Translations under genes and position numbers: made by a program
DNA from: Gammaproteobacteria bacterium
Lineage (GTDB): Bacteria; Pseudomonadota; Gammaproteobacteria; Coxiellales; Coxiellaceae
NCBI GenBank assembly: GCA_013287505.1
Contig: JABDDR010000001.1
Coordinates: 17,931 to 81,930 of the forward strand
Direction: 5' to 3'
DNA length: 64,000 nucleotides
Part shown: positions 5,366 through 42,942 of the stretch, piece by piece
Layout of the letters: each line of letters begins with the position of its first letter
Numbering within the stretch: the stretch's first letter is position 1
Notes under the pieces: generated by a model
Told to the model about the DNA's origin: nothing
The model's database searches: none
Seen by the model: the letters and a program-made list of their open reading frames with translations, nothing else

Positions 5366-7804
5366 TCAATGCGTTGCATGTTTTGCTTTACTGATTTTTG
5401 CCTTTGGTAATACGCGTTTTTTTGCGGCAACTTCAGTTGGCAGACGTTCTAATGCAATTGCTAACACCTGATCAATCCAACGCACAGGGTGAATATCCAA
5501 CACTTCTAATACTTCTTTGGGGATTTCTTTTAAATCACGCTTGTTTTCTAGTGGAATAATTACCGTTTTAATTCCACCGCGCAACGCTGCTAATAATTTT
5601 TCTTTTAATCCACCAATCGGCAACACTTCGCCGCGCAACGTGATTTCACCCGTCATTGCAACGCTTGCATGCACTGGAATATGTGTAATCGCAGAAACCA
5701 GCGCAACACACATACCAATACCCGCACTCGGTCCATCTTTCGGTGTTGCGCCTTCAGGTACATGCACGTGAAAATCATTGTTTTGAAAATAAGTGTCTTC
5801 AACAGAAAATAAAGGTGCACGACTCCGCACAACTGTCATGGCTGCATTAATGGATTCTTTCATTACATCACCCAAGCTGCCGGTATGTAATAATTTACCT
5901 TTGCCCGCCATCACTTGCGCTTCGATTGTTAATAATTCACCACCCACTTCCGTCCACGCAAGACCAGTCACTTGCCCTACTTGATCACGCTCTTCTGCAA
6001 GACCATAGCGATATTTAATAACACCTAAATATTTTTCGAGATTGCGCACAGTGACCGGATAACACTCTACTTTTTTATTTTTATTTTTTTTGGTCACAAC
6101 AAGACGCACGATTTTACGACAAATTTTCGAAATTTGTCTCTCCAAACTACGCACACCCGCTTCTCGCGTATATGAACGAATAATTTCACGAATCGCCGTT
6201 TCAGAAAAATGAATTTCATCTTTTTGTAAACCCGACTGTTCAATTTGTCTAGGAATTAAATAATTATTTGCGATATGTAATTTTTCTTCTTCGGTATAAC
6301 CCGGCAAACGAATCACTTCCATGCGATCTAACAATGCGGGTGGAATATTTAAAGAATTGGCGGTCGCAATAAACATCACGTCCGACAAATCATAATCCAC
6401 TTCCAAATAATGATCGTTAAATTTATTATTTTGCTCAGGATCTAATACTTCCAATAATGCAGACGCAGGATCGCCACGAAAATCAACGGCCATTTTATCG
6501 ACTTCGTCTAACATAAAAAGCGGATTACGTACTTTGGCGCGCATCATACGTTGAATAATCTTTCCGGGCATTGCACCAATGTAGGTGCGACGGTGACCAC
6601 GAATTTCTGCTTCATCACGAATCCCGCCAAGCGATATACGCGCAAATACACGGCCTGTGGCGTTCGCGATAGATTGTCCGAGAGATGTTTTACCAACACC
6701 CGGCGGACCTACCAAGCATAAAATAGGACCTTTTAATTTTTTGACACGCAATTGCACCGCTAAATATTCAAGAATGCGCTCTTTAACTTCTTTTAATCCA
6801 TAATGATCTGCTTCCAGCATTTTTTCGGCCGCTGTTAGATCCATGTTGATCTTCGACGTTTCTTTCCACGGCACTTGCAATAATGCTTCTAAAAAATTAC
6901 GACTGACAGTGGCTTCTGCCGACATGGGTGGCATCATACGTAATTTTGACAATTCAGATTTTGCTTTGTCCTTTGCCTCTTTCGGCATTCCTGCATTTTC
7001 AATATTTTTTTCGATTTGTTTTAATTCATCTGCTGGCGTACCTTCTTCAAGATCACCCAGCTCTTGCTGAATCGCTTTTAATTTTTCACTTAAATAATAT
7101 TGTCTTTGACTTTTTTCAACTTGCTGCTTCACGCGTCCTTGCACATTTTTTTCTACTTCGATTAATTCAAGTTCCTGCGCAATCAAATCGCGTAATAAAA
7201 GCAAGCGTTTTTTAACATCAAATGTTTCTAAAATTTTCTGTCTAGAATCTATGCTCACCGTTAAGTGTGCAGCGACCGTATCTGAAAAATGCGCGGGTAT
7301 TTTTATATTACGAACCGATGTGATTAATTCAGGCGGAATTTTTTTATTCACTTTTACCAATTGCTCAAATTGCGCAGTAATATTGCGCTGAGCCACCACA
7401 ATTTCGGGGTCTTCAGCGACTTCGAGTTCGTGATAAACATCACATTGTACACGCATAAATGGCGCGTCATCTGTGATATTTAAAAATGCGGTGACGCGCG
7501 CACGCGAAATACCTTCAACCAATACTTTAACGGTGCCATCAGGCAATCTGAGCATTTGTAAAATAGTGGCGATCGTGCCTACAGAAAATAAATCTGCATC
7601 AGTCGGTGAATCAATGGATGCATTCTTTTGCGCAACCAAAGCCACTTGCTTGTCCTTGCTCATTGCAAATTCAAGCGCTTTAATCGACTCAGCGCGACCG
7701 ACAAATAACGGAATGACCATGTGCGGATAAATCACGACATCGCGCAGGGGGATGAGGGGTAATGTGAGAAGATCGTTGGCGATAAGATTCTTTTTTTTAG
7801 ACAT
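5366..7804 (-). CDS. lon: ATP-dependent Lon protease
   Basis: 812 aa. Has the LON N-domain, Walker A GPPGVGKTS and the protease motif PKDGPSAGIGM. Confidence 0.97.
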   Translation of the reverse strand: MSKKKNLIANDLLTLPLIPLRDVVIYPHMVIPLFVGRAESIKALEFAMSKDKQVALVAQKNASIDSPTDADLFSVGTIATILQMLRLPDGTVKVLVEGISRARVTAFLNITDDAPFMRVQCDVYHELEVAEDPEIVVAQRNITAQFEQLVKVNKKIPPELITSVRNIKIPAHFSDTVAAHLTVSIDSRQKILETFDVKKRLLLLRDLIAQELELIEVEKNVQGRVKQQVEKSQRQYYLSEKLKAIQQELGDLEEGTPADELKQIEKNIENAGMPKEAKDKAKSELSKLRMMPPMSAEATVSRNFLEALLQVPWKETSKINMDLTAAEKMLEADHYGLKEVKERILEYLAVQLRVKKLKGPILCLVGPPGVGKTSLGQSIANATGRVFARISLGGIRDEAEIRGHRRTYIGAMPGKIIQRMMRAKVRNPLFMLDEVDKMAVDFRGDPASALLEVLDPEQNNKFNDHYLEVDYDLSDVMFIATANSLNIPPALLDRMEVIRLPGYTEEEKLHIANNYLIPRQIEQSGLQKDEIHFSETAIREIIRSYTREAGVRSLERQISKICRKIVRLVVTKKNKNKKVECYPVTVRNLEKYLGVIKYRYGLAEERDQVGQVTGLAWTEVGGELLTIEAQVMAGKGKLLHTGSLGDVMKESINAAMTVVRSRAPLFSVEDTYFQNNDFHVHVPEGATPKDGPSAGIGMCVALVSAITHIPVHASVAMTGEITLRGEVLPIGGLKEKLLAALRGGIKTVIIPLENKRDLKEIPKEVLEVLDIHPVRWIDQVLAIALERLPTEVAAKKRVLPKAKISKAKHATH

Positions 7805-7823: not shown

Positions 7824-7849
7824 GAAACGCGATAAATTGACGTCTCTAC
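7824..7849. repeat. REP-like palindromic unit (degenerate copy) in the clpX-lon spacer
   Basis: gaaacgcgataaattgacgtctctac matches the family consensus gagacgcgataaatcgacgtctctac. The clpX stop codon TAG (7846-7848, minus strand) lies inside its ctctac tail. Confidence 0.7.
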
Positions 7850-9105
7850 ACTATCTTCTTCTCATCACCTTCGTAAATATACAACGGTTTCGTTTTTTCT
7901 TTAATCACATTTTTATCAATGATGACTTGTTTTAATCCAACCATCGACGGAATCTCATACATCGCTTCCAACAATGCGTGTTCCACAATCGATCGTAAAC
8001 CACGTGCACCGGATTTTCGATCAATGGCCAATTTTGCAATTTCATGCAATGCATCTTCACGAAACTCAATATGAACACCTTCGAGTTCAAATAATTTCTT
8101 GTACTGCTTTGTGAGTGCATTTTTCGGCTGTGTCAAAATAGCAAGCAATGCCGCTTCATCCAATTCATCCAATACTGAAATCACCGGCAAACGTCCCACA
8201 AATTCAGGAATTAAGCCGTATTTGATTAGATCCTGATTTTCAACTTTTTTAATAATGTTATTTGTCGTTATTCTTTCTTTGATTTTTACTGCTGCTGCAA
8301 AACCAATACCACTTTCATCGGTACGTTGCTGCACAATTTTGTCCAGATCTGCAAATGCACCACCGCAGATAAATAAAATATTGGTGGTATCTACTTGCAA
8401 ATATTCTTGCTGTGGATGTTTGCGCCCCCCTTGTGGCGGAATCGCTGCAACCGTACCCTCAATTAATTTCAATAATGCTTGTTGCACGCCTTCGCCCGAT
8501 ACATCGCGTGTTAATGAAGGGCTATCAGATTTACGCGCAATTTTATCAATTTCATCGATGTAAATAATACCCGTTTGCGCTTTCGCAACATCGTAATTAC
8601 ATTTTTGCAATAATTTTTGCACGATATTTTCAACATCTTCACCGACATAACCCGCTTCTGTTAATGTGGTGGCATCGGCAATAGCAAACGGCACATTTAA
8701 AATACGCGCCAGTGTTTGCGCCAATAATGTTTTTCCAGAACCGGTTGGTCCAATAAATAAAATATTACTTTTTGTTAATTCCACATCATCGTTTGATGCG
8801 CGGTGATGCAGACGTTTGTAATGATTATAAACGGCGACAGACAATATTTTTTTAGCATCCGTTTGACCAACGACATATTGATCTAATTGCGCATGCAATT
8901 CTTTGGGGCTCGGCAAATAACTTTTATCGGACGAAGCAACGTCCGATAATTCTTCTTCGCGGATAATATCATTGCACAAATTCACGCATTCATTGCAAAC
9001 AAATACAGAAGGACCTGCAATGAGTTTTTTTACTTCGTGCTGACTTTTTCCGCAAAAAGAACAATATAAAATTTCATTTTTATTAGGGGTTTTGTTTTCA
9101 GCCAT
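7846..9105 (-). CDS. clpX: ATP-dependent Clp protease ATP-binding subunit ClpX
   Basis: Zinc-finger [26 protein letters not shown] and Walker A GPTGSGKT. Confidence 0.97.
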
Positions 9106-14595: not shown

Positions 14596-14603
14596 AATAA
14601 TCC

Positions 14604-14664
14604 ATGAGACGCGATAAGCTATGAGACGCGATAAACTATGAGACGCGATAAATCGCGTCTCTAC
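14604..14664. repeat. REP-like tandem half-site array (3 units of 17 bp, last one a full palindrome)
   Basis: atgagacgcgataagct / atgagacgcgataaact / atgagacgcgataaatcgcgtctctac. It fills the spacer between the permease stop (TAG 14661-14663, inside the repeat) and the ATPase start. Confidence 0.85.
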
Positions 14665-15794
14665 AAATCCATCCAATTAAACAAAATAGAAAACAATCCA
14701 TCCGCCAAAATAATCATAAATATCGCTTGCACAGCTGCTTTTGTTGTTCTTTCACCCACACTTTGTGCGCTACCTGATGCTTGCAATCCCTGATAACAAC
14801 CAATACCTGCGATAATTAATGCAAATACCGGTGTTTTTACGAGACCCAAATAAAAATGTTTAATAGCGACTGTTTCTTTAAAACGCTCTAAAAATGCGTG
14901 AAAACCAATACCTATCATACTTTTTGAAATGATCATACTGCCAAAAACACCAAAAATATCACCCCACACGACAAGTAATGGCAATGCAATTAACAATCCT
15001 AATATCTTGGGCAACACCAAACGTTCAATTGGTGATAAACCCATTGTGCGTAGCGCGTCTACTTCTTCATTCACTTTCATGGTTCCAATTAAAGCTGCAA
15101 AAGATGTGCTGGTACGTCCTGCAATAATGACTGAGCAAATCAGTGGTGAAAATTCACGTAAAATCGATACGCCCGATAAATCGACGATATAAACATCGGC
15201 ACCATACACTCGCAATTGCACACCCAATTGATAAGCAACCACCACGCCGATCAAAAGCATCATGACGGCAATAATCGGCAGTGCGCCATAACCGCCCACT
15301 TCAATTTCATAAATCATTGAGCGCAGTTGTAAACGAACGGGATTGGTGATCATTTCAAAAAGGCGCACAAATACTTCGCCTAAAAAAGCAAACGCGAACA
15401 ACATATGTTGGTAATTTTCAACAGTACTTTTTCCAACGCGATAAAATAAATTATAATGTGGCGGCGTTAGCGCTACTTTTTCAATTTTTGCCGATTCATT
15501 CGCAACCACTTTCAAAACCGATTGAAATTTTTCCTGTAATCCAGAAATGGTGATGGCGGGATTTGTCTTTAATAATTTTTGCTGAAGGGAATAAAATAAA
15601 AATGCGCCTGCAGTATCCATTGCAGTAATTTTACTGGCATCAATCGTTTTTATTTTAGGGATTTTGTGATGAGCGCTGAACTGTTGGTACCATGCATCTG
15701 CATCATGCAGTTGGTTATTCAACCAGCTGCCCTTCAGCAGCATACTATCACCTGCGTTATTCAGCTCGATGGAGGCTGAGTCCTTGCGAAGCAT
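14661..15794 (-). CDS. MlaE-family ABC permease with N-terminal STAS-like extension
   Basis: C-terminal MlaE-type TM core (for example GRTSTSFAALIGTMKVNEEVDAL). ATG at 15794 is preceded by AAGGA. The ORF-track start at 15833 is a TTG. Confidence 0.8.
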   Translation of the reverse strand: MLRKDSASIELNNAGDSMLLKGSWLNNQLHDADAWYQQFSAHHKIPKIKTIDASKITAMDTAGAFLFYSLQQKLLKTNPAITISGLQEKFQSVLKVVANESAKIEKVALTPPHYNLFYRVGKSTVENYQHMLFAFAFLGEVFVRLFEMITNPVRLQLRSMIYEIEVGGYGALPIIAVMMLLIGVVVAYQLGVQLRVYGADVYIVDLSGVSILREFSPLICSVIIAGRTSTSFAALIGTMKVNEEVDALRTMGLSPIERLVLPKILGLLIALPLLVVWGDIFGVFGSMIISKSMIGIGFHAFLERFKETVAIKHFYLGLVKTPVFALIIAGIGCYQGLQASGSAQSVGERTTKAAVQAIFMIILADGLFSILFNWMDL

Positions 15795-15856
15795 GAGACG
15801 TCCTTGTAAACATGAATTCCGGATAAAAAACAATTATATCACAAGCAAAAATGAGG

Positions 15857-18933: not shown

Positions 18934-19005
18934 ACTTGATTTCGCAGTTTTTTGTCATTGCTTACAAAAATCAAAGAATCACTGAGCGTAACGTTTCTGC
19001 TGGCT

Positions 19006-19107
19006 ATATAGTTCAGAAGCCGAGCGTTAGCGAATGCGAAAGGTTGGTCGAAGAGTGATTGTTTTACAGGCTTTCGCATTCGCTAACGCTCGGCTTCTAA
19101 ACTATAT
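19006..19107. repeat. Long hairpin: 37-bp arms with 1 mismatch, 28-nt loop
   Basis: atatagttcagaagccgagcgttagcgaatgcgaaag (19006-19042) pairs with ctttcgcattcgctaacgctcggcttctaaactatat (19071-19107). It explains the shared FAFANARLLNY peptide in two opposite-strand ORFs. Confidence 0.85.
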
Positions 19108-19166
19108 GACAAAAACGAGCGGTGGCGTAGTTGGTTTATTTTCAAATAACACTCCAAAGGATATGC

Positions 19167-19733: not shown

Positions 19734-19807
19734 GAAATGGTGCCACGTTTCACGCGCACCCTACCGGGCTGAAGTATCCCCATAAATTTTGAATTGTCGT
19801 GAACTTC

Positions 19808-19968
19808 GTAGAGACGTCGATTTATCGCGTCTCAAATCTCAGAATTACCTCGCCGTATAGTCAATAATACTTACTCAGATGTCAGCGCATTTACAAACAC
19901 CGATGATAATCATGCATTTGAGACGCGATAAATCGACGTCTCTACGAAAGACTGAATCGCGTCTTTAC
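19808..19968. repeat. Pair of REP-like units in inverted orientation (perfect 26-bp inverted repeats around an 86-bp spacer) plus a partial third unit
   Basis: gtagagacgtcgatttatcgcgtctc (19808-19833) is the exact reverse complement of gagacgcgataaatcgacgtctctac (19920-19945). A half-site gaatcgcgtctttac follows. Confidence 0.85.
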
Positions 19969-20076
19969 AACAATGATATTAATTCAAGTGGTTATAAAAG
20001 GATGTGCGTTTTGTAGTGAGCCTAACATCCAGCACAATGAGTGTTTTTTTTCATTCTATTCCGTATACTGAACGCC

Positions 20077-21226: not shown

Positions 21227-21499
21227 ATGAAAATCCACGCTAAAATTCAAAAATGGGGAAATAGCCTTGGTTTGCGCATTTCAGGCCCCCTAAAAACCAT
21301 TCCAAAATTTGAGGAAAATATGCAAGTTACTGTCGATGTCACTTCAGGCGGGATTTATGTGTACCCCCAAAAAAAATTAACGGCACGAGATATTTTGCCG
21401 TTTACCTTAGAGGAATTATTAGCGGATGTGGACGAAGAAACGGTTCGCAGATATCACGATCTACTGCCAAAACTGCTACCCAAGGAATATGACGTATGA
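21227..21499 (+). CDS. Type II antitoxin, AbrB/MazE (SpoVT-AbrB) family
   Basis: KIQKWGNSLGLRISGPL looped-hinge motif. There is a 4-nt overlap (ATGA) with the toxin gene. Confidence 0.8.
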   Translation: MKIHAKIQKWGNSLGLRISGPLKTIPKFEENMQVTVDVTSGGIYVYPQKKLTARDILPFTLEELLADVDEETVRRYHDLLPKLLPKEYDV

Positions 21500-21864
21500 A
21501 AAAACATTATATTCCTGATCAAAACGATATTATTTGGCTTGATTTTGAACCCGTAAAAGGCAAAGAAATAGGAAAATATCGACCCGCTCTCGTTTTATCT
21601 CCCAAAAAATACAATCAAATGTTTGATCTTGTCATCTGCTGTCCAATCAGCACCAGCATTCGAAAGCAATTATTGGAAGTGCCTGTCAATAATTTAGAAC
21701 AAACATCTGTTGTTGTTACCACTATGATTCAAACAGTCTCATGGACAGATCGAAAAATGAAATTTATTACACACGCTGAAGACGGCGTTATGACAGCGGT
21801 ACTGCAACGCATTATTCCCCTGATCGGCGCTGACAAAATAGTATTGGAAGCTGGGCTCAAATAA
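21496..21864 (+). CDS. Type II toxin, MazF/PemK-family endoribonuclease
   Basis: IPDQNDIIWLDFEPVKGKEIGKYRPALVLSPKKYN is the canonical MazF/PemK N-terminal pattern. Confidence 0.85.
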   Translation: MKKHYIPDQNDIIWLDFEPVKGKEIGKYRPALVLSPKKYNQMFDLVICCPISTSIRKQLLEVPVNNLEQTSVVVTTMIQTVSWTDRKMKFITHAEDGVMTAVLQRIIPLIGADKIVLEAGLK

Positions 21865-21941: not shown

Positions 21942-22403
21942 ATGTCTCGTCATTCGCCAACAGAAGAAGAAAGAAGAGAACAGAGAGAACAGTTTGAAGC
22001 CAACGAATCAACATTCAGAGAAGAGAGAATAAAACGCGAAAATTTCGTTAGGAAAAATTTGATACTAGTAGACCATCCAGCGCAATTAGCAGAGGCAGCA
22101 GCAGCTCAAGCTATACGAGAAGAAAGTGAAAGACAGGCAGCAGCAGCAGCTCAAGCTATACGAGAAGAAAGTGAAAGACAGGAAGCAGCAGCTCAAGTTA
22201 CAGCAGTTCAGGCTCAAAGAGAAGAAACAGTAGTAACAACAAAGACACAAACGCCGACAGGCAGTCCGACGGCGAGCAATCGGAATCGTCTGATGTCTGC
22301 TCCTGTACCTGCCGCATCCACACCTACATCTAAGCCGACCATTGGATCAAGACCCGAAAAAGAAGAAGTACGCGGCTGCTGCGGGTGGCGGCCCTTCATG
22401 TGA
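21942..22403 (+). CDS. Hypothetical low-complexity protein with 15-aa tandem repeats (E/R/A/Q-rich, then T/P/S-rich)
   Basis: AAAQAIREESERQAA is repeated from a 45-bp DNA tandem repeat (about 22096-22200). The region is visibly more G+C-rich than its surroundings. Confidence 0.5.
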   Translation: MSRHSPTEEERREQREQFEANESTFREERIKRENFVRKNLILVDHPAQLAEAAAAQAIREESERQAAAAAQAIREESERQEAAAQVTAVQAQREETVVTTKTQTPTGSPTASNRNRLMSAPVPAASTPTSKPTIGSRPEKEEVRGCCGWRPFM

Positions 22404-25936: not shown

Positions 25937-26029
25937 ACGCACACCCTGCCGGGTGTGCTTCTGTAGATCTTCGTATAAGCACGGTGCCGAGTCGAAGCGC
26001 TACGGAAGCACACCCGGCAGGGTGTGCGT
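25937..26029. repeat. G+C-rich nested palindrome between convergent mfd and MFS genes (likely bidirectional terminator)
   Basis: 29-nt arms acgcacaccctgccgggtgtgcttctgta / tacggaagcacacccggcagggtgtgcgt pair with 1 mismatch. Each arm also contains its own hairpin gcacaccc-tgcc-gggtgtgc. Confidence 0.8.
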
Positions 26030-28758: not shown

Positions 28759-29691
28759 ATGAGAAACCTATTCCATGTTCTGAAATTGGTATTATTGTGC
28801 AGTATTGTCGCTTTGCTCTGTGCATGCGCCGGTGCCCGCCCTGATATTGCCATTCCTAATCAATTACCACAATCATTGCAACTCACATACCGTCCACAAG
28901 TCGCGCTGGTGTTAGGCGCGGGCGGTGCACGCGGTTTTGCGCACGCAGGCGCTGTTCTTGTGCTGCAAAATGCGGGTATTCCCATTAATTTAATTGTGGG
29001 TACCAGTGTGGGTAGTTTTTATGGTGCATTATTGGCAGACAGTGGCAATGCAAAAATCGCCGCTAAAATCATGCTGTCAGCCTCATTTTGGGATATCGCA
29101 GATATCGCCAATCTACCCAGCCTTCAAGGTGAAATTCAGGGTTATCGCTATCAAAAATTTTTATTACATCACATGCATGCACGATGGTTTGATCAATTGA
29201 AAATTCCGTTGGTGGTGGTTGCATCCAATCTACATACGGGGAAAAAATTTGTTATTTCAAGCGGGCCGATTGCACCGGCAGCAGAAGCATCTTCTGCGAT
29301 TCCTGGCGCTGTAAAACCAGCCTATTTGTATGGTCATATGCTGGTTGATGGCGGTGTAACCGACCCTGTTCCCGTAGATATCGCAGAGCAATATCATCCT
29401 AAAGTCATTATTGCGATTAATCTTGCGCAACAATTATCAAAAAAAATGCCGTGGTCTGCATTGGGTATTTTCGATAGAAGTTATCAGATTGCGTGGTTAA
29501 CCTTGTCGCGCAAATCAGAGCATGGTGCTGATATCGTTATTCGCCCCAAAGTAGGCAATGTCGGCGCATTTGATGTGGATCAAAAATATCAATTATTTTA
29601 TCAGGGTGAAATTGCGGCATACAAAGAATTGCCGGAAATTAAGCGTATTCTGCGCGAAAAGCATATTGCGCTGTTAAATCGCGCTTGCTAA
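28759..29691 (+). CDS. Patatin-like phospholipase (RssA-like), probable lipoprotein
   Basis: Oxyanion GAGGARGFAH, nucleophile GTSVGS and catalytic Asp motif DGGV. Signal peptide with Cys. Confidence 0.85.
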   Translation: MRNLFHVLKLVLLCSIVALLCACAGARPDIAIPNQLPQSLQLTYRPQVALVLGAGGARGFAHAGAVLVLQNAGIPINLIVGTSVGSFYGALLADSGNAKIAAKIMLSASFWDIADIANLPSLQGEIQGYRYQKFLLHHMHARWFDQLKIPLVVVASNLHTGKKFVISSGPIAPAAEASSAIPGAVKPAYLYGHMLVDGGVTDPVPVDIAEQYHPKVIIAINLAQQLSKKMPWSALGIFDRSYQIAWLTLSRKSEHGADIVIRPKVGNVGAFDVDQKYQLFYQGEIAAYKELPEIKRILREKHIALLNRAC

Positions 29692-29784
29692 CGCAAGTGC
29701 TTCTAAAGTATGTCACTAGCATGTACGTGTTGATAGTTTGTGCCAATGGTAAAGTTTAGAAGCACTTGCGTTAGCAAGCGCGAT
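29678..29784. repeat. 30-bp perfect inverted repeat spanning the stop codons of two convergent genes
   Basis: atcgcgcttgctaacgcaagtgcttctaaa (29678-29707) is the reverse complement of 29755-29784. Both genes therefore end with the peptide RAC followed by TAA. Confidence 0.85.
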
Positions 29785-33604: not shown

Positions 33605-34702
33605 ATGAAAAAAAAATCGATCATCATTGCAATCATTTTATTATTAATCATTACTACCATTTTCTTCGCACACCACCACAAAAAACAAAGCACACCCAAA
33701 AAAACACCCGCAATCCCCGTGCGCGTTCAAAACCCCATGCAACAATCTCTTCCGGTCACAGCAAACGCAACGGGTTATTTGGTCGCGCAAAAAAGCACAA
33801 CCATCACACCCCGCGCACCTGGCTACATTCAATCCATTGCATTTCACGAAGGTGATGTTATTCAATCTGGGCAAGTTTTATTTCAACTCGATAATCAAGC
33901 ACAAAAAGAAGCACTCACCGCAGCAAAAGCCGCTTATGGCTTAAGCAAATTACAATTCGAGCGCGATCAAAAATTCTTAAAAAAAGGATTTATCACGCAG
34001 GATATGTATTACAGCGCAAAGGTCACCTTAAAACAAAATCAAGCGGCGCTTGAAACTGCGCAGATCAATCTTTCTGATCGCACCATCACAGCACCGTTTG
34101 CTGGTACTACCGGTAGCATTAAAACCAGCCTGGGAGATTATGTTAATCCAGGCGCCGTTCTCACGACACTCGTCGACAATAAACATTTACGCGTAGAGTA
34201 TGCCCTGCCCGTTAAAAATTTAAATCAATTAAAAATAAATCAAGCGGTCAGTATTAGTGATGCCACTCAAAAAAATAAAATTACTGCGATCGTTTCATAT
34301 ATTTCACCGCAAGTCGCACAATCATCACAAACAATTTCTGTGCATGCGCGCATTGATAATTCAGCGCAATTATTTAAACCTGGTGAATATGTGACGATCA
34401 CACAAAATTTGGGGTTGCAAAAAAATTCGTTATTATTACCCGAACAAAGTGTGCTTGCCTCAATCAATGGTTATTCCGTTTTTGTGGTAAAAAATAATAA
34501 AGCCGTTCGTGTGCCTGTCACCATTGGTAATCGCATCAATGGCAACGTTGTGATTACAAAAGGATTAACTGCCAAAGATGATGTAATTGTTGCAGGAGAA
34601 AATGAGGTGAAAAATGGTCAACCCGTAGAGACGCGATTCATCGCGTCTCCAAGCGTTATCGCGTCTCCAAGCGTTATCGCGTCTCCGAGCAAGGCGCATT
34701 AA
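33605..34702 (+). CDS. RND efflux periplasmic adaptor (MFP) with repeat-encoded C-terminal tail
   Basis: HlyD/MFP pattern (ITAPFAGTTG). The last 25 aa or so, VETRFIASPSVIASPSVIASPSKAH, are encoded by REP-like units. Confidence 0.88.
   Translation: MKKKSIIIAIILLLIITTIFFAHHHKKQSTPKKTPAIPVRVQNPMQQSLPVTANATGYLVAQKSTTITPRAPGYIQSIAFHEGDVIQSGQVLFQLDNQAQKEALTAAKAAYGLSKLQFERDQKFLKKGFITQDMYYSAKVTLKQNQAALETAQINLSDRTITAPFAGTTGSIKTSLGDYVNPGAVLTTLVDNKHLRVEYALPVKNLNQLKINQAVSISDATQKNKITAIVSYISPQVAQSSQTISVHARIDNSAQLFKPGEYVTITQNLGLQKNSLLLPEQSVLASINGYSVFVVKNNKAVRVPVTIGNRINGNVVITKGLTAKDDVIVAGENEVKNGQPVETRFIASPSVIASPSVIASPSKAH
34625..34686. repeat. REP-like unit plus two 18-bp tandem half-sites, translated in frame
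   Basis: gtagagacgcgattcatcgcgtctcc is followed by aagcgttatcgcgtctcc twice. It lies inside the 3' end of the adaptor ORF. Confidence 0.85.
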
Positions 34703-42749: not shown

Positions 42750-42794
42750 GTAGAGACGTCGATTTATCGCGTCTCAATTTATCGCGGCTTGTAG
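42750..42794. repeat. REP-like unit plus partial unit upstream of tRNA-Asn
   Basis: gtagagacgtcgatttatcgcgtctc (identical to 19808-19833) is followed by aatttatcgcggcttgtag. Confidence 0.85.

Positions 42795-42867: not shown

Positions 42868-42942
<75 letters not shown>

Follow-up and report, generated by a model that had tools for sequence, protein, structure and literature searches.

The GAGACG/CGTCTC repeat of this stretch of DNA belongs to a family of GTAG-tagged REPs, often arranged as REPIN-like doublets, which are probably mobilised as single-stranded DNA by a RAYT-type HUH (Y1) transposase acting in trans. The stretch, referred to here as the window, is 64 kb long and corresponds to C1:17931-81930 of an assembly of 1.37 Mb (57 contigs, 39% G+C, 67% complete). 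The whole-genome search called for in an earlier note on this DNA, performed here with a tolerance of three substitutions, detected 152 full units, and a reversed-pattern control detected 0. These units make up 108 loci on at least 40 contigs. The six loci per 64 kb, which that note had considered a high density, equal the genome average of 152 units in 1.37 Mb.

The unit reads 5'-(TTC)GTA-GAGACG(T/C/-)CGATTYATCGCGTCTC-3', a consensus present at 6/6 window loci, and its exact 26-mer is GTAGAGACGTCGATTTATCGCGTCTC. Genome-wide, units and their flanks follow the profile (T)(T)(C)G97-T97-A99 | GAGACG(n)CGATTYATCGCGTCTC | A-R-A-T-C-T, in which positions -3 to -1 before the stem are G in 97%, T in 97% and A in 99% of units, and the next base is the G of the stem. 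The GTA is found on exactly one side in 139/152 units, and this is always the side predicted both by the loop, which reads TTTA/TTCA on the tagged strand, and by the bulge, an optional base (T, C or none) that invariably lies in the 5' arm. The unit is strand-asymmetric and no symmetric palindrome, comprising a 5' GTAG tag, a 5'-arm bulge and a TTYA loop; the 24-nt search pattern proposed earlier (GAGACGNCGATWWATCGNCGTCTC) returned 0 matches because the extra base occurs in one arm only. As ssDNA, the 25-26-nt unit folds into a 9-bp stem, which may contain a 1-nt bulge, and a 4-nt loop, with a dG (as DNA) of -7.9 kcal/mol when bulged and -10.8 kcal/mol when perfect. Every copy reads TA|GAGACG...CGTCTC|TA, and the conserved flank is GTA/TAC, itself an inverted repeat. 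A scan with Rfam covariance models yielded chance-level matches only (E at least 2.7).

All 38 unit pairs spaced 9-130 bp apart are convergent, with GTAG facing outward, and the opposite arrangement was found 0 times. Doublet spacers cluster at 36-38 nt (13 pairs), 81-83 nt (8) and 86 nt (11), and the short spacers are imperfect palindromes themselves. Solitary units number ~65 against these 38 pairs, and their orientation follows GC skew (44/60, p = 6e-4), as it does when units that supply a stop codon are set aside (31/45, p = 0.018). Such a bias is as expected for single-strand transposition and would put the tagged strand on the lagging-strand template, with gene orientation as a confounder of both statements. 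The asymmetry, the tag, the loop and the outward-GTAG pairs are the defining features of GTAG-tagged REPs and REPINs.

Within the window, the repeat is present at the six loci described earlier, as three exact 26-mers, one copy with two mismatches and two arrays, where 100 shuffles give an expectation of 0 matches to the 26-mer. The inverted pair that drew attention to the family, with two exact reverse-complement copies around 86 bp and a subsequent half-site, was confirmed in every part at 19805-19968. Its left member (19808-19833, plus strand; GTA + GAGACG-T-CGA/TTTA/TCG-CGTCTC) is an exact match that folds with the 9-bp stem, 1-nt bulge, 4-nt loop and dG of -7.9 kcal/mol given above, and its right member (19920-19945, minus strand) is the exact reverse complement. 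Together they comprise a head-to-head, REPIN-like doublet at 19805-19948 with GTAG outward, whose hairpin cores are separated by 86 nt. Its 33-nt arms (19805-19837 and 19916-19948) show 100% complementarity across a gap of 78 nt, and the doublet can fold as one long hairpin (z = -6.1). A degenerate partial third unit follows at 19946-19968 on the minus strand, where it reads GTAAAGACGCGATTCAGTCTTTC.

The remaining window copies lie at or within gene ends, or upstream of a tRNA gene. The unit at 7824-7849 (minus strand, 2 mismatches) provides the stop codon of clpX (7846-9105, minus strand), its TAG being the complement of 7846-7848. At 14597-14664 on the minus strand, a full unit (14640-14664) is accompanied by two extra 17-bp copies of its 3' half, and its TAG is the stop codon of a MlaE-type permease gene (14661-15833, minus strand). 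On the plus strand, a full unit with two 18-bp copies of the 3' half (34625-34686) lies in frame (VETRFIASPSVIASPSVIASPSKAH) as the C-terminal tail of an HlyD-family adaptor gene (33605-34702), where it is read through in frame 2 for 24 codons, giving a 24-residue tail. The last copy, at 42750-42794 on the plus strand, comprises a full unit (exact 26-mer at 42750-42775) and a partial 3'-half copy, ~74 nt upstream of tRNA-Asn (42868-42942). Tandem duplications of the 3' half alone, of 17-19 bp (the arm plus 5-6 nt), were seen at 14604-14639, 34650-34686, 42776-42794 and C53:391-432, invariably on the 3' side of a full unit; hairpin slippage or abortive processing are possible origins.

To the sequence itself the label "genome-specific", applied in the earlier note, does not extend, since the identical 25-26-mer occurs in several phyla; it holds for the burst, which is restricted to this species. 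A strict pattern matches 113 times here, 0-4 times in each of seven congeners (58-100% complete) and 0-1 times in other genera of the family. The coding DNA of the congeners is ~71-81% identical to that of this genome, so "species-specific burst" is a safe wording, and their lone copies adjoin ordinary genes rather than transposases. With ~150 copies, or one per 9 kb in a genome of roughly 2 Mb, the burst can be set against these congeners in a clean before-and-after comparison. In a scan of 185,579 species representatives, exact matches elsewhere, among the matches listed, were found in Nostoc, Calothrix, Fischerella, Oscillatoria, Prevotella and other Bacteroidales; the matches listed also include Flavobacteriales, Saprospiraceae, Cloacimonadota, Omnitrophota, two candidate-phyla-radiation genomes and a Methylobacter MAG. 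High copy numbers were reached in Prevotella sp. P5-108 (182 units), Calothrix NIES-4105 (106), N. punctiforme NIES-2108 (34) and the Bacteroidales chromosome OY782678 (29). The unit was present in 12/101 genomes of a Bacteroidales sample, with a burst in one only. Doublets of other genomes feature the same outward-GTAG layout with unrelated spacers, the 26-nt unit alone being conserved. A full-text literature search for the unit sequence returned primers only.

These other genomes tie the unit to one clade of short RAYTs, which it flanks in Bacteroidales, Prevotella, Calothrix and one genome (G033) from this organism's own class. Plain clustering of the ORFs beside 118 unit-centred loci from other genomes gave no dominant neighbor, and the link surfaced only when these loci were searched with RAYT queries, which found a short RAYT-like ORF in 5/118. 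At four loci (L084, L096, L105 and L102), units or the local variant of their sequence lie on both sides of the RAYT-like ORF. In low-copy Bacteroidales genomes, 7/14 unit loci hold a RAYT that overlaps units or is flanked by them. Prevotella P5-108 (G045) possesses one RAYT (C9:6350-6838) with units at 6261 and 6642, OY782678 (G043) possesses one (C1:1511744-1512280) with units on either side, and G033 encodes a 39%-identical RAYT, with GTAGAGACG...CGTCTCTAC units both within its gene and to each side of it; no further units were found in G033 outside this locus. The clade is characterised by the motifs YF(I/V)TICT, HYFG, VMPNHIHG (the HUH motif) and WQxRF(Y/H)DHIIR (the tyrosine motif). The linker between the HUH and tyrosine motifs is hypervariable and in many cases includes the REP of the enzyme itself as an in-frame copy (L084:6366-6387, L105:429-450, L102:7281-7320, L176:1801-1828 and L216/L219/L226). 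The in-linker variants VETRxIAS, RDAINRVST and VETLQ were also seen to co-vary with the flanking units. The sole NCBIfam match of the clade is REP-associated tyrosine transposase, at 45-52 bits (curated cut-off 80), and the Pfam Y1_Tnp model barely detects it, having missed the RAYT in both Prevotella and OY782678.

A RAYT-type tyrosine transposase is therefore the best candidate mobiliser, as judged from gene neighborhoods. The proposal of the earlier note that the repeat is the substrate of a RAYT encoded elsewhere is borne out in that the same unit flanks one RAYT clade in other genomes, and falls short in that no such RAYT was found in this assembly. Neither a Y1_Tnp search nor tblastn found a RAYT/IS200-like gene flanked by the unit in this genome. 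With six clade proteins as tblastn queries, the assembly returned no cognate RAYT, and a protein search of the seven congeners and eleven other genomes of the family returned none; with the assembly 67% complete, the organism may nevertheless possess the gene. We infer that the burst in this genome was caused by a RAYT of this clade whose gene is not among the assembled contigs; it may reside in the unassembled third of the genome, or the organism may have lost it once the burst was over. The units would be short, non-autonomous DNA hairpins that spread as single-stranded substrates of a RAYT supplied in trans, a single-strand mechanism that we infer by analogy with E. coli TnpA-REP and IS608. 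The recognition module would consist of the 5' GTAG and the GAGACG/CGTCTC stem foot, leaving the inner stem, loop and spacer free to vary. This proposal follows from the conservation of tag and foot across RAYTs 36-60% identical, while the inner stem varies (CGATTYATCG, TTGCATGCAA, TTACATGTAA, CAAAATTTTG). That one REP type, GTAGAGACG...CGTCTC, pairs with a single RAYT clade in Bacteroidota, in Cyanobacteria and in this organism's class points to the same tag and stem foot as the module that is recognised.

The assembly does encode tyrosine transposases of another kind, and it is conceivable, if unlikely, that one of these mobilises the units in trans in place of an unassembled short RAYT. Four intact paralogues of 315-319 aa (L001-L004, at C3:55949-56896, C17:3184-4143, C17:12184-13188 and C31:10276-11232) combine Y1_Tnp with a DnaA C-terminal helix-turn-helix, and one further weak Y1-like protein of 184 aa is present. 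The four are the only clear HUH Y1 enzymes of the assembly, their best NCBIfam match is REP-associated tyrosine transposase at 67-72 bits (below the cut-off of 80), and one unit lies 440 bp from a C17 paralogue. However, a unit would fall within 500 bp of any of the four genes by chance in ~30% of cases, and no GAGACG unit brackets any resident Y1 gene, be it one of the four paralogues or the gene of the 184-aa protein. Instead, each of the four genes is bracketed by its own, different inverted repeats, two of which belong to small dispersed families with 16-17 matches each, suggesting cognate specificity. These two repeats also recur as inverted pairs at 5-6 other loci. The paralogues and their repeats match the 'TIRtron/TIRYT' arrangement as set out in PMC3733652. 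The GAGACG unit is linked to the different, short RAYT clade in other genomes, which again favors mobilisation by an enzyme of that clade.

The positions of the units reveal how they enter genes. The 108 loci comprise 61 between co-directional genes, 17 between convergent genes, 12 in divergent intergenic gaps, ~15 inside ORFs and 3 at contig edges, the intragenic count resting on an ORF proxy. The TAG of the GTAG tag ends an ORF of at least 80 codons in 34 units, against 6 and 10 ORFs that run into a unit in the other two frames. In 7/7 genes compared with orthologues from five or six congeners, the stop has been replaced in place: the REP's TAG occupies the position of a TAA, TGA or TAG, and the protein ends at the orthologue residue position, or within one residue where the C-terminal tail is variable. 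The excess at stop codons could reflect target choice, or the survival of harmless insertions alone in a genome that an ORF proxy rates as 88% coding. In-frame units were also found inside dnaN, polA, priA, ileS and putA, where they encode VETRFIAS or (G/R/K)DA(I/M)NRVS. The dnaN product contains 10 extra residues, (V)ETRFIASHPV, that are missing from 5 congeners; the insertion is without a target duplication, and the empty site in the closest relative reads GTA|AAT. The interdomain linker of polA features 12 extra residues relative to the closest relative. These filled and empty sites at dnaN and polA are direct evidence of insertion, and the single unit in dnaN indicates that singlets, too, can insert or remain. 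The units thus settle exactly on stop codons, where they leave the length of the protein unchanged, and in loops where essential replication proteins tolerate them. For annotation, they account for odd C-terminal tails and short insertions in several genes here.

Could these hairpins be abundant because the host selects for them, for example to stabilise the 3' ends of mRNAs or to attenuate translation termination, rather than because of ongoing transposition? In E. coli, REPs protect the 3' ends of mRNAs, and those lying no more than ~15 nt from a stop codon reportedly lower expression through ribosome stalling. The 34 units that begin at the stop codon itself, and the mild depletion of units between divergent genes (12 observed, ~20 expected by length), are consistent with such a function. 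Against this, the seven congeners possess 0-4 copies and the same genes without units, the in-frame copies in dnaN, polA and priA cannot serve as 3' elements, and no T-run is present 3' of the hairpin. The downstream consensus is ARATCT, which departs from an intrinsic (Rho-independent) terminator and speaks against the terminator role suggested in the earlier note. A host function would also leave the origin of the copies unexplained. We consider it improbable as the cause of their abundance; it would complement mobilisation by a RAYT rather than replace it.

Mobilisation by a RAYT raises the question of what the tag represents. The GTA may often be a pre-existing insertion target rather than cargo, comparable to the TTAC of IS608, although we hold this as a tentative proposal that is possible rather than probable. 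The element would insert 3' of a GTA, genes ending in ...G-TAA or ...G-TAG would be harmless targets, and the TAG stop would land exactly at the old place. Suggestive hints come from the 7/7 in-place stops, from four of these seven genes in which the last sense codon is conserved and G-ending (TTG, GTG, AGG, CAG) and relatives read G-TAA, from the GTA|AAT empty site of dnaN, and from an occupied stop in G003, a second congener other than the closest relative. If true, the proposal offers a mechanistic account of why GTAG REPs so often supply stop codons. The G003 unit (L204, on contig C60) lies on the stop of the orthologue of C3:4462-6954, where this genome contains three units in tandem; that stop is empty in four further congeners, two of which are closer by protein identity. 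The occupancy in G003 reflects either an old insertion common to both genomes or a target that has been hit more than once.

The doublet at 19805-19948 owes its own copy number to a different element. It was described earlier as MITE-like, and our analysis reveals no free-standing MITE but the center of a ~250-bp repeat, termed X, with different, IS10-like ends. The window copy of X (19769-19999, plus strand) begins with CTGAAGTATCCCCAYAAATTTT, lacks its right end through deletion, and sits in another hairpin, with ACGCGCACCCTACCGGG at 19752-19768 and TGTGCGT at 20003-20009. X is present in 11 copies in the assembly (89-99% identity), 7/11 of which contain the degenerate third unit. Complete copies are ~250 bp long with ends CTGAAGTATCCCCAYAAATTTT and its complement, and their terminal inverted repeats of 21-39 bp begin CTGAAGTATCCCC.... 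A target duplication of 9-10 bp (GCCGAGCGTT or variants) flanks 5/7 complete copies, and all these duplications lie within one different hairpin family. X therefore exhibits the two hallmarks of a DDE-type MITE, namely terminal inverted repeats and target-site duplication. Its end sequences were found nowhere else in the assembly, which contains no autonomous partner. IS10 makes 9-bp duplications at GCTNAGC-like sites, and we take the ends of X to resemble those of IS10. In the most symmetric copy (on contig C4) the REP doublet is placed exactly between two 39-bp inverted ends, which identifies the doublet as a passenger amplified with X. The window pair has thus been copied 11 times as the passenger of a separate MITE, and the 22/152 units that X accounts for owe their copy number to it, not to REP mobility. 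No empty site is readable at the pair's own locus, as the rhomboid-mnmA junction is non-syntenic in the congeners. Here, then, a REP doublet is seen hitch-hiking in an unrelated MITE.

That the 26-nt unit is itself the terminal inverted repeat of a DDE transposon, a conventional MITE inserting at TA and duplicating it, is highly improbable and largely refuted: the perfect inverted ends of doublets, the TA on both sides of every copy and the coexistence of a true MITE (X) would fit, but solitary units outnumber doublets, the conserved flank is GTA/TAC and more than TA, the dnaN insertion has no duplication, bulge, loop and tag are each specific to one strand, the spacers of different phyla are unrelated whereas RAYT genes are linked to the unit, and the unit displays neither a target-site duplication nor an autonomous partner, no transposase-bearing element bounded by units having been identified (one '+-' pair at 0.6-3 kb left out).

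Several further features were observed in the window. An unrelated palindrome family at 19001-19109 (37-nt arms, 97% complementary, ATATAGTTCAGAAGCCGAGCGTTAGCGAATGCGAAAG; 41 arm copies genome-wide) is the preferred insertion target of X, with GCCGAGCGTT duplicated inside. Two more hairpin families, at 25937-26029 and 29678-29784, feature the cores GCACACCCTGCCGGGTGTGC and GCGCTTGCTAACGCAAGTGCTTCTAAAG, respectively, and occur at ~13 loci and as 61 arm copies genome-wide; both possess a (T/C)AGAAGC motif beside the stem. Short palindromic repeats of at least six families are thus present in this small genome. At 21227-21864, a gene for a MazF/PemK-type toxin (21496-21864) shares 4 nt with a 90-aa ORF, presumably the antitoxin, which has no Pfam match. 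Moreover, 45-bp tandem repeats at 22095-22241, comprising two near-identical and two diverged copies, lie inside a 153-aa ORF (21942-22403), also with no Pfam match.

Among known systems, Rickettsia palindromic elements (RPE) resemble the present family in being palindromes found in frame inside essential genes, but they measure 100-150 bp and lack a GTAG tag; Di Nocera et al. (PMC3733652) assign rickettsial REPs to the CGTC super-family. The IS200/IS605 elements (IS608, ISDra2) share the HUH Y1 enzyme, subterminal ssDNA hairpins, the lack of target duplication, insertion beside a short specific sequence and an orientation bias relative to replication. In contrast to these elements, REPs are without a transposase, their doublets are inverted rather than direct, and GTA as a target is only suggested here. 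E. coli REP/BIME elements and TnpA-REP (PMC3479197, PMC8266576) likewise comprise a GTAG and hairpin recognised by an HUH Y1 enzyme on ssDNA, whereas stem and loop have other sequences in the present family, its linked RAYT clade is only distantly related, and recognition by that clade is putative.

The closest counterparts are REPINs and the GTAG REPs. As in the REPINs of Pseudomonas fluorescens SBW25 (Bertels and Rainey 2011, PMC3116915), two inverted REPs and a short spacer can fold as one hairpin, spacing falls into discrete classes, and the ends are conserved while the spacers diverge; all 38 close pairs are convergent here. Singlets constitute only 18% in SBW25, against ~65 singlets and 38 pairs in this genome. 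Pseudomonas REPINs are lineage-specific, whereas this REP sequence is found in several phyla, with no resident cognate RAYT found. Our search for the unit string in the accessible text and supplements of PMC3733652 gave no match, the 24 family consensus sequences of that paper lying outside the comparison. The GTAG REP super-family (Di Nocera, De Gregorio and Rocco 2013, PMC3733652) features GTAG in >90% of members, a stem of 6-13 bp with a short 'TY'-type loop, head-to-head dimers 20-100 bp apart with GTAG outward, flanking ORFs that use the tag's TAG as a stop, intragenic copies in replication/repair genes, and a patchy spread over distant phyla, with REP-flanked RAYT genes termed 'REPtrons'. 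The present family is alike in tag, TY loop, dimers, TAG stops, replication/repair insertions and patchy distribution. Its short stem-loops carry GTAG in >90% of copies and are numerous, dispersed and mostly extragenic. A REPtron was not found in this 67%-complete assembly, but the same unit forms such an arrangement elsewhere. By these traits the family is real and ordinary in kind, a GTAG-tagged REP/REPIN.
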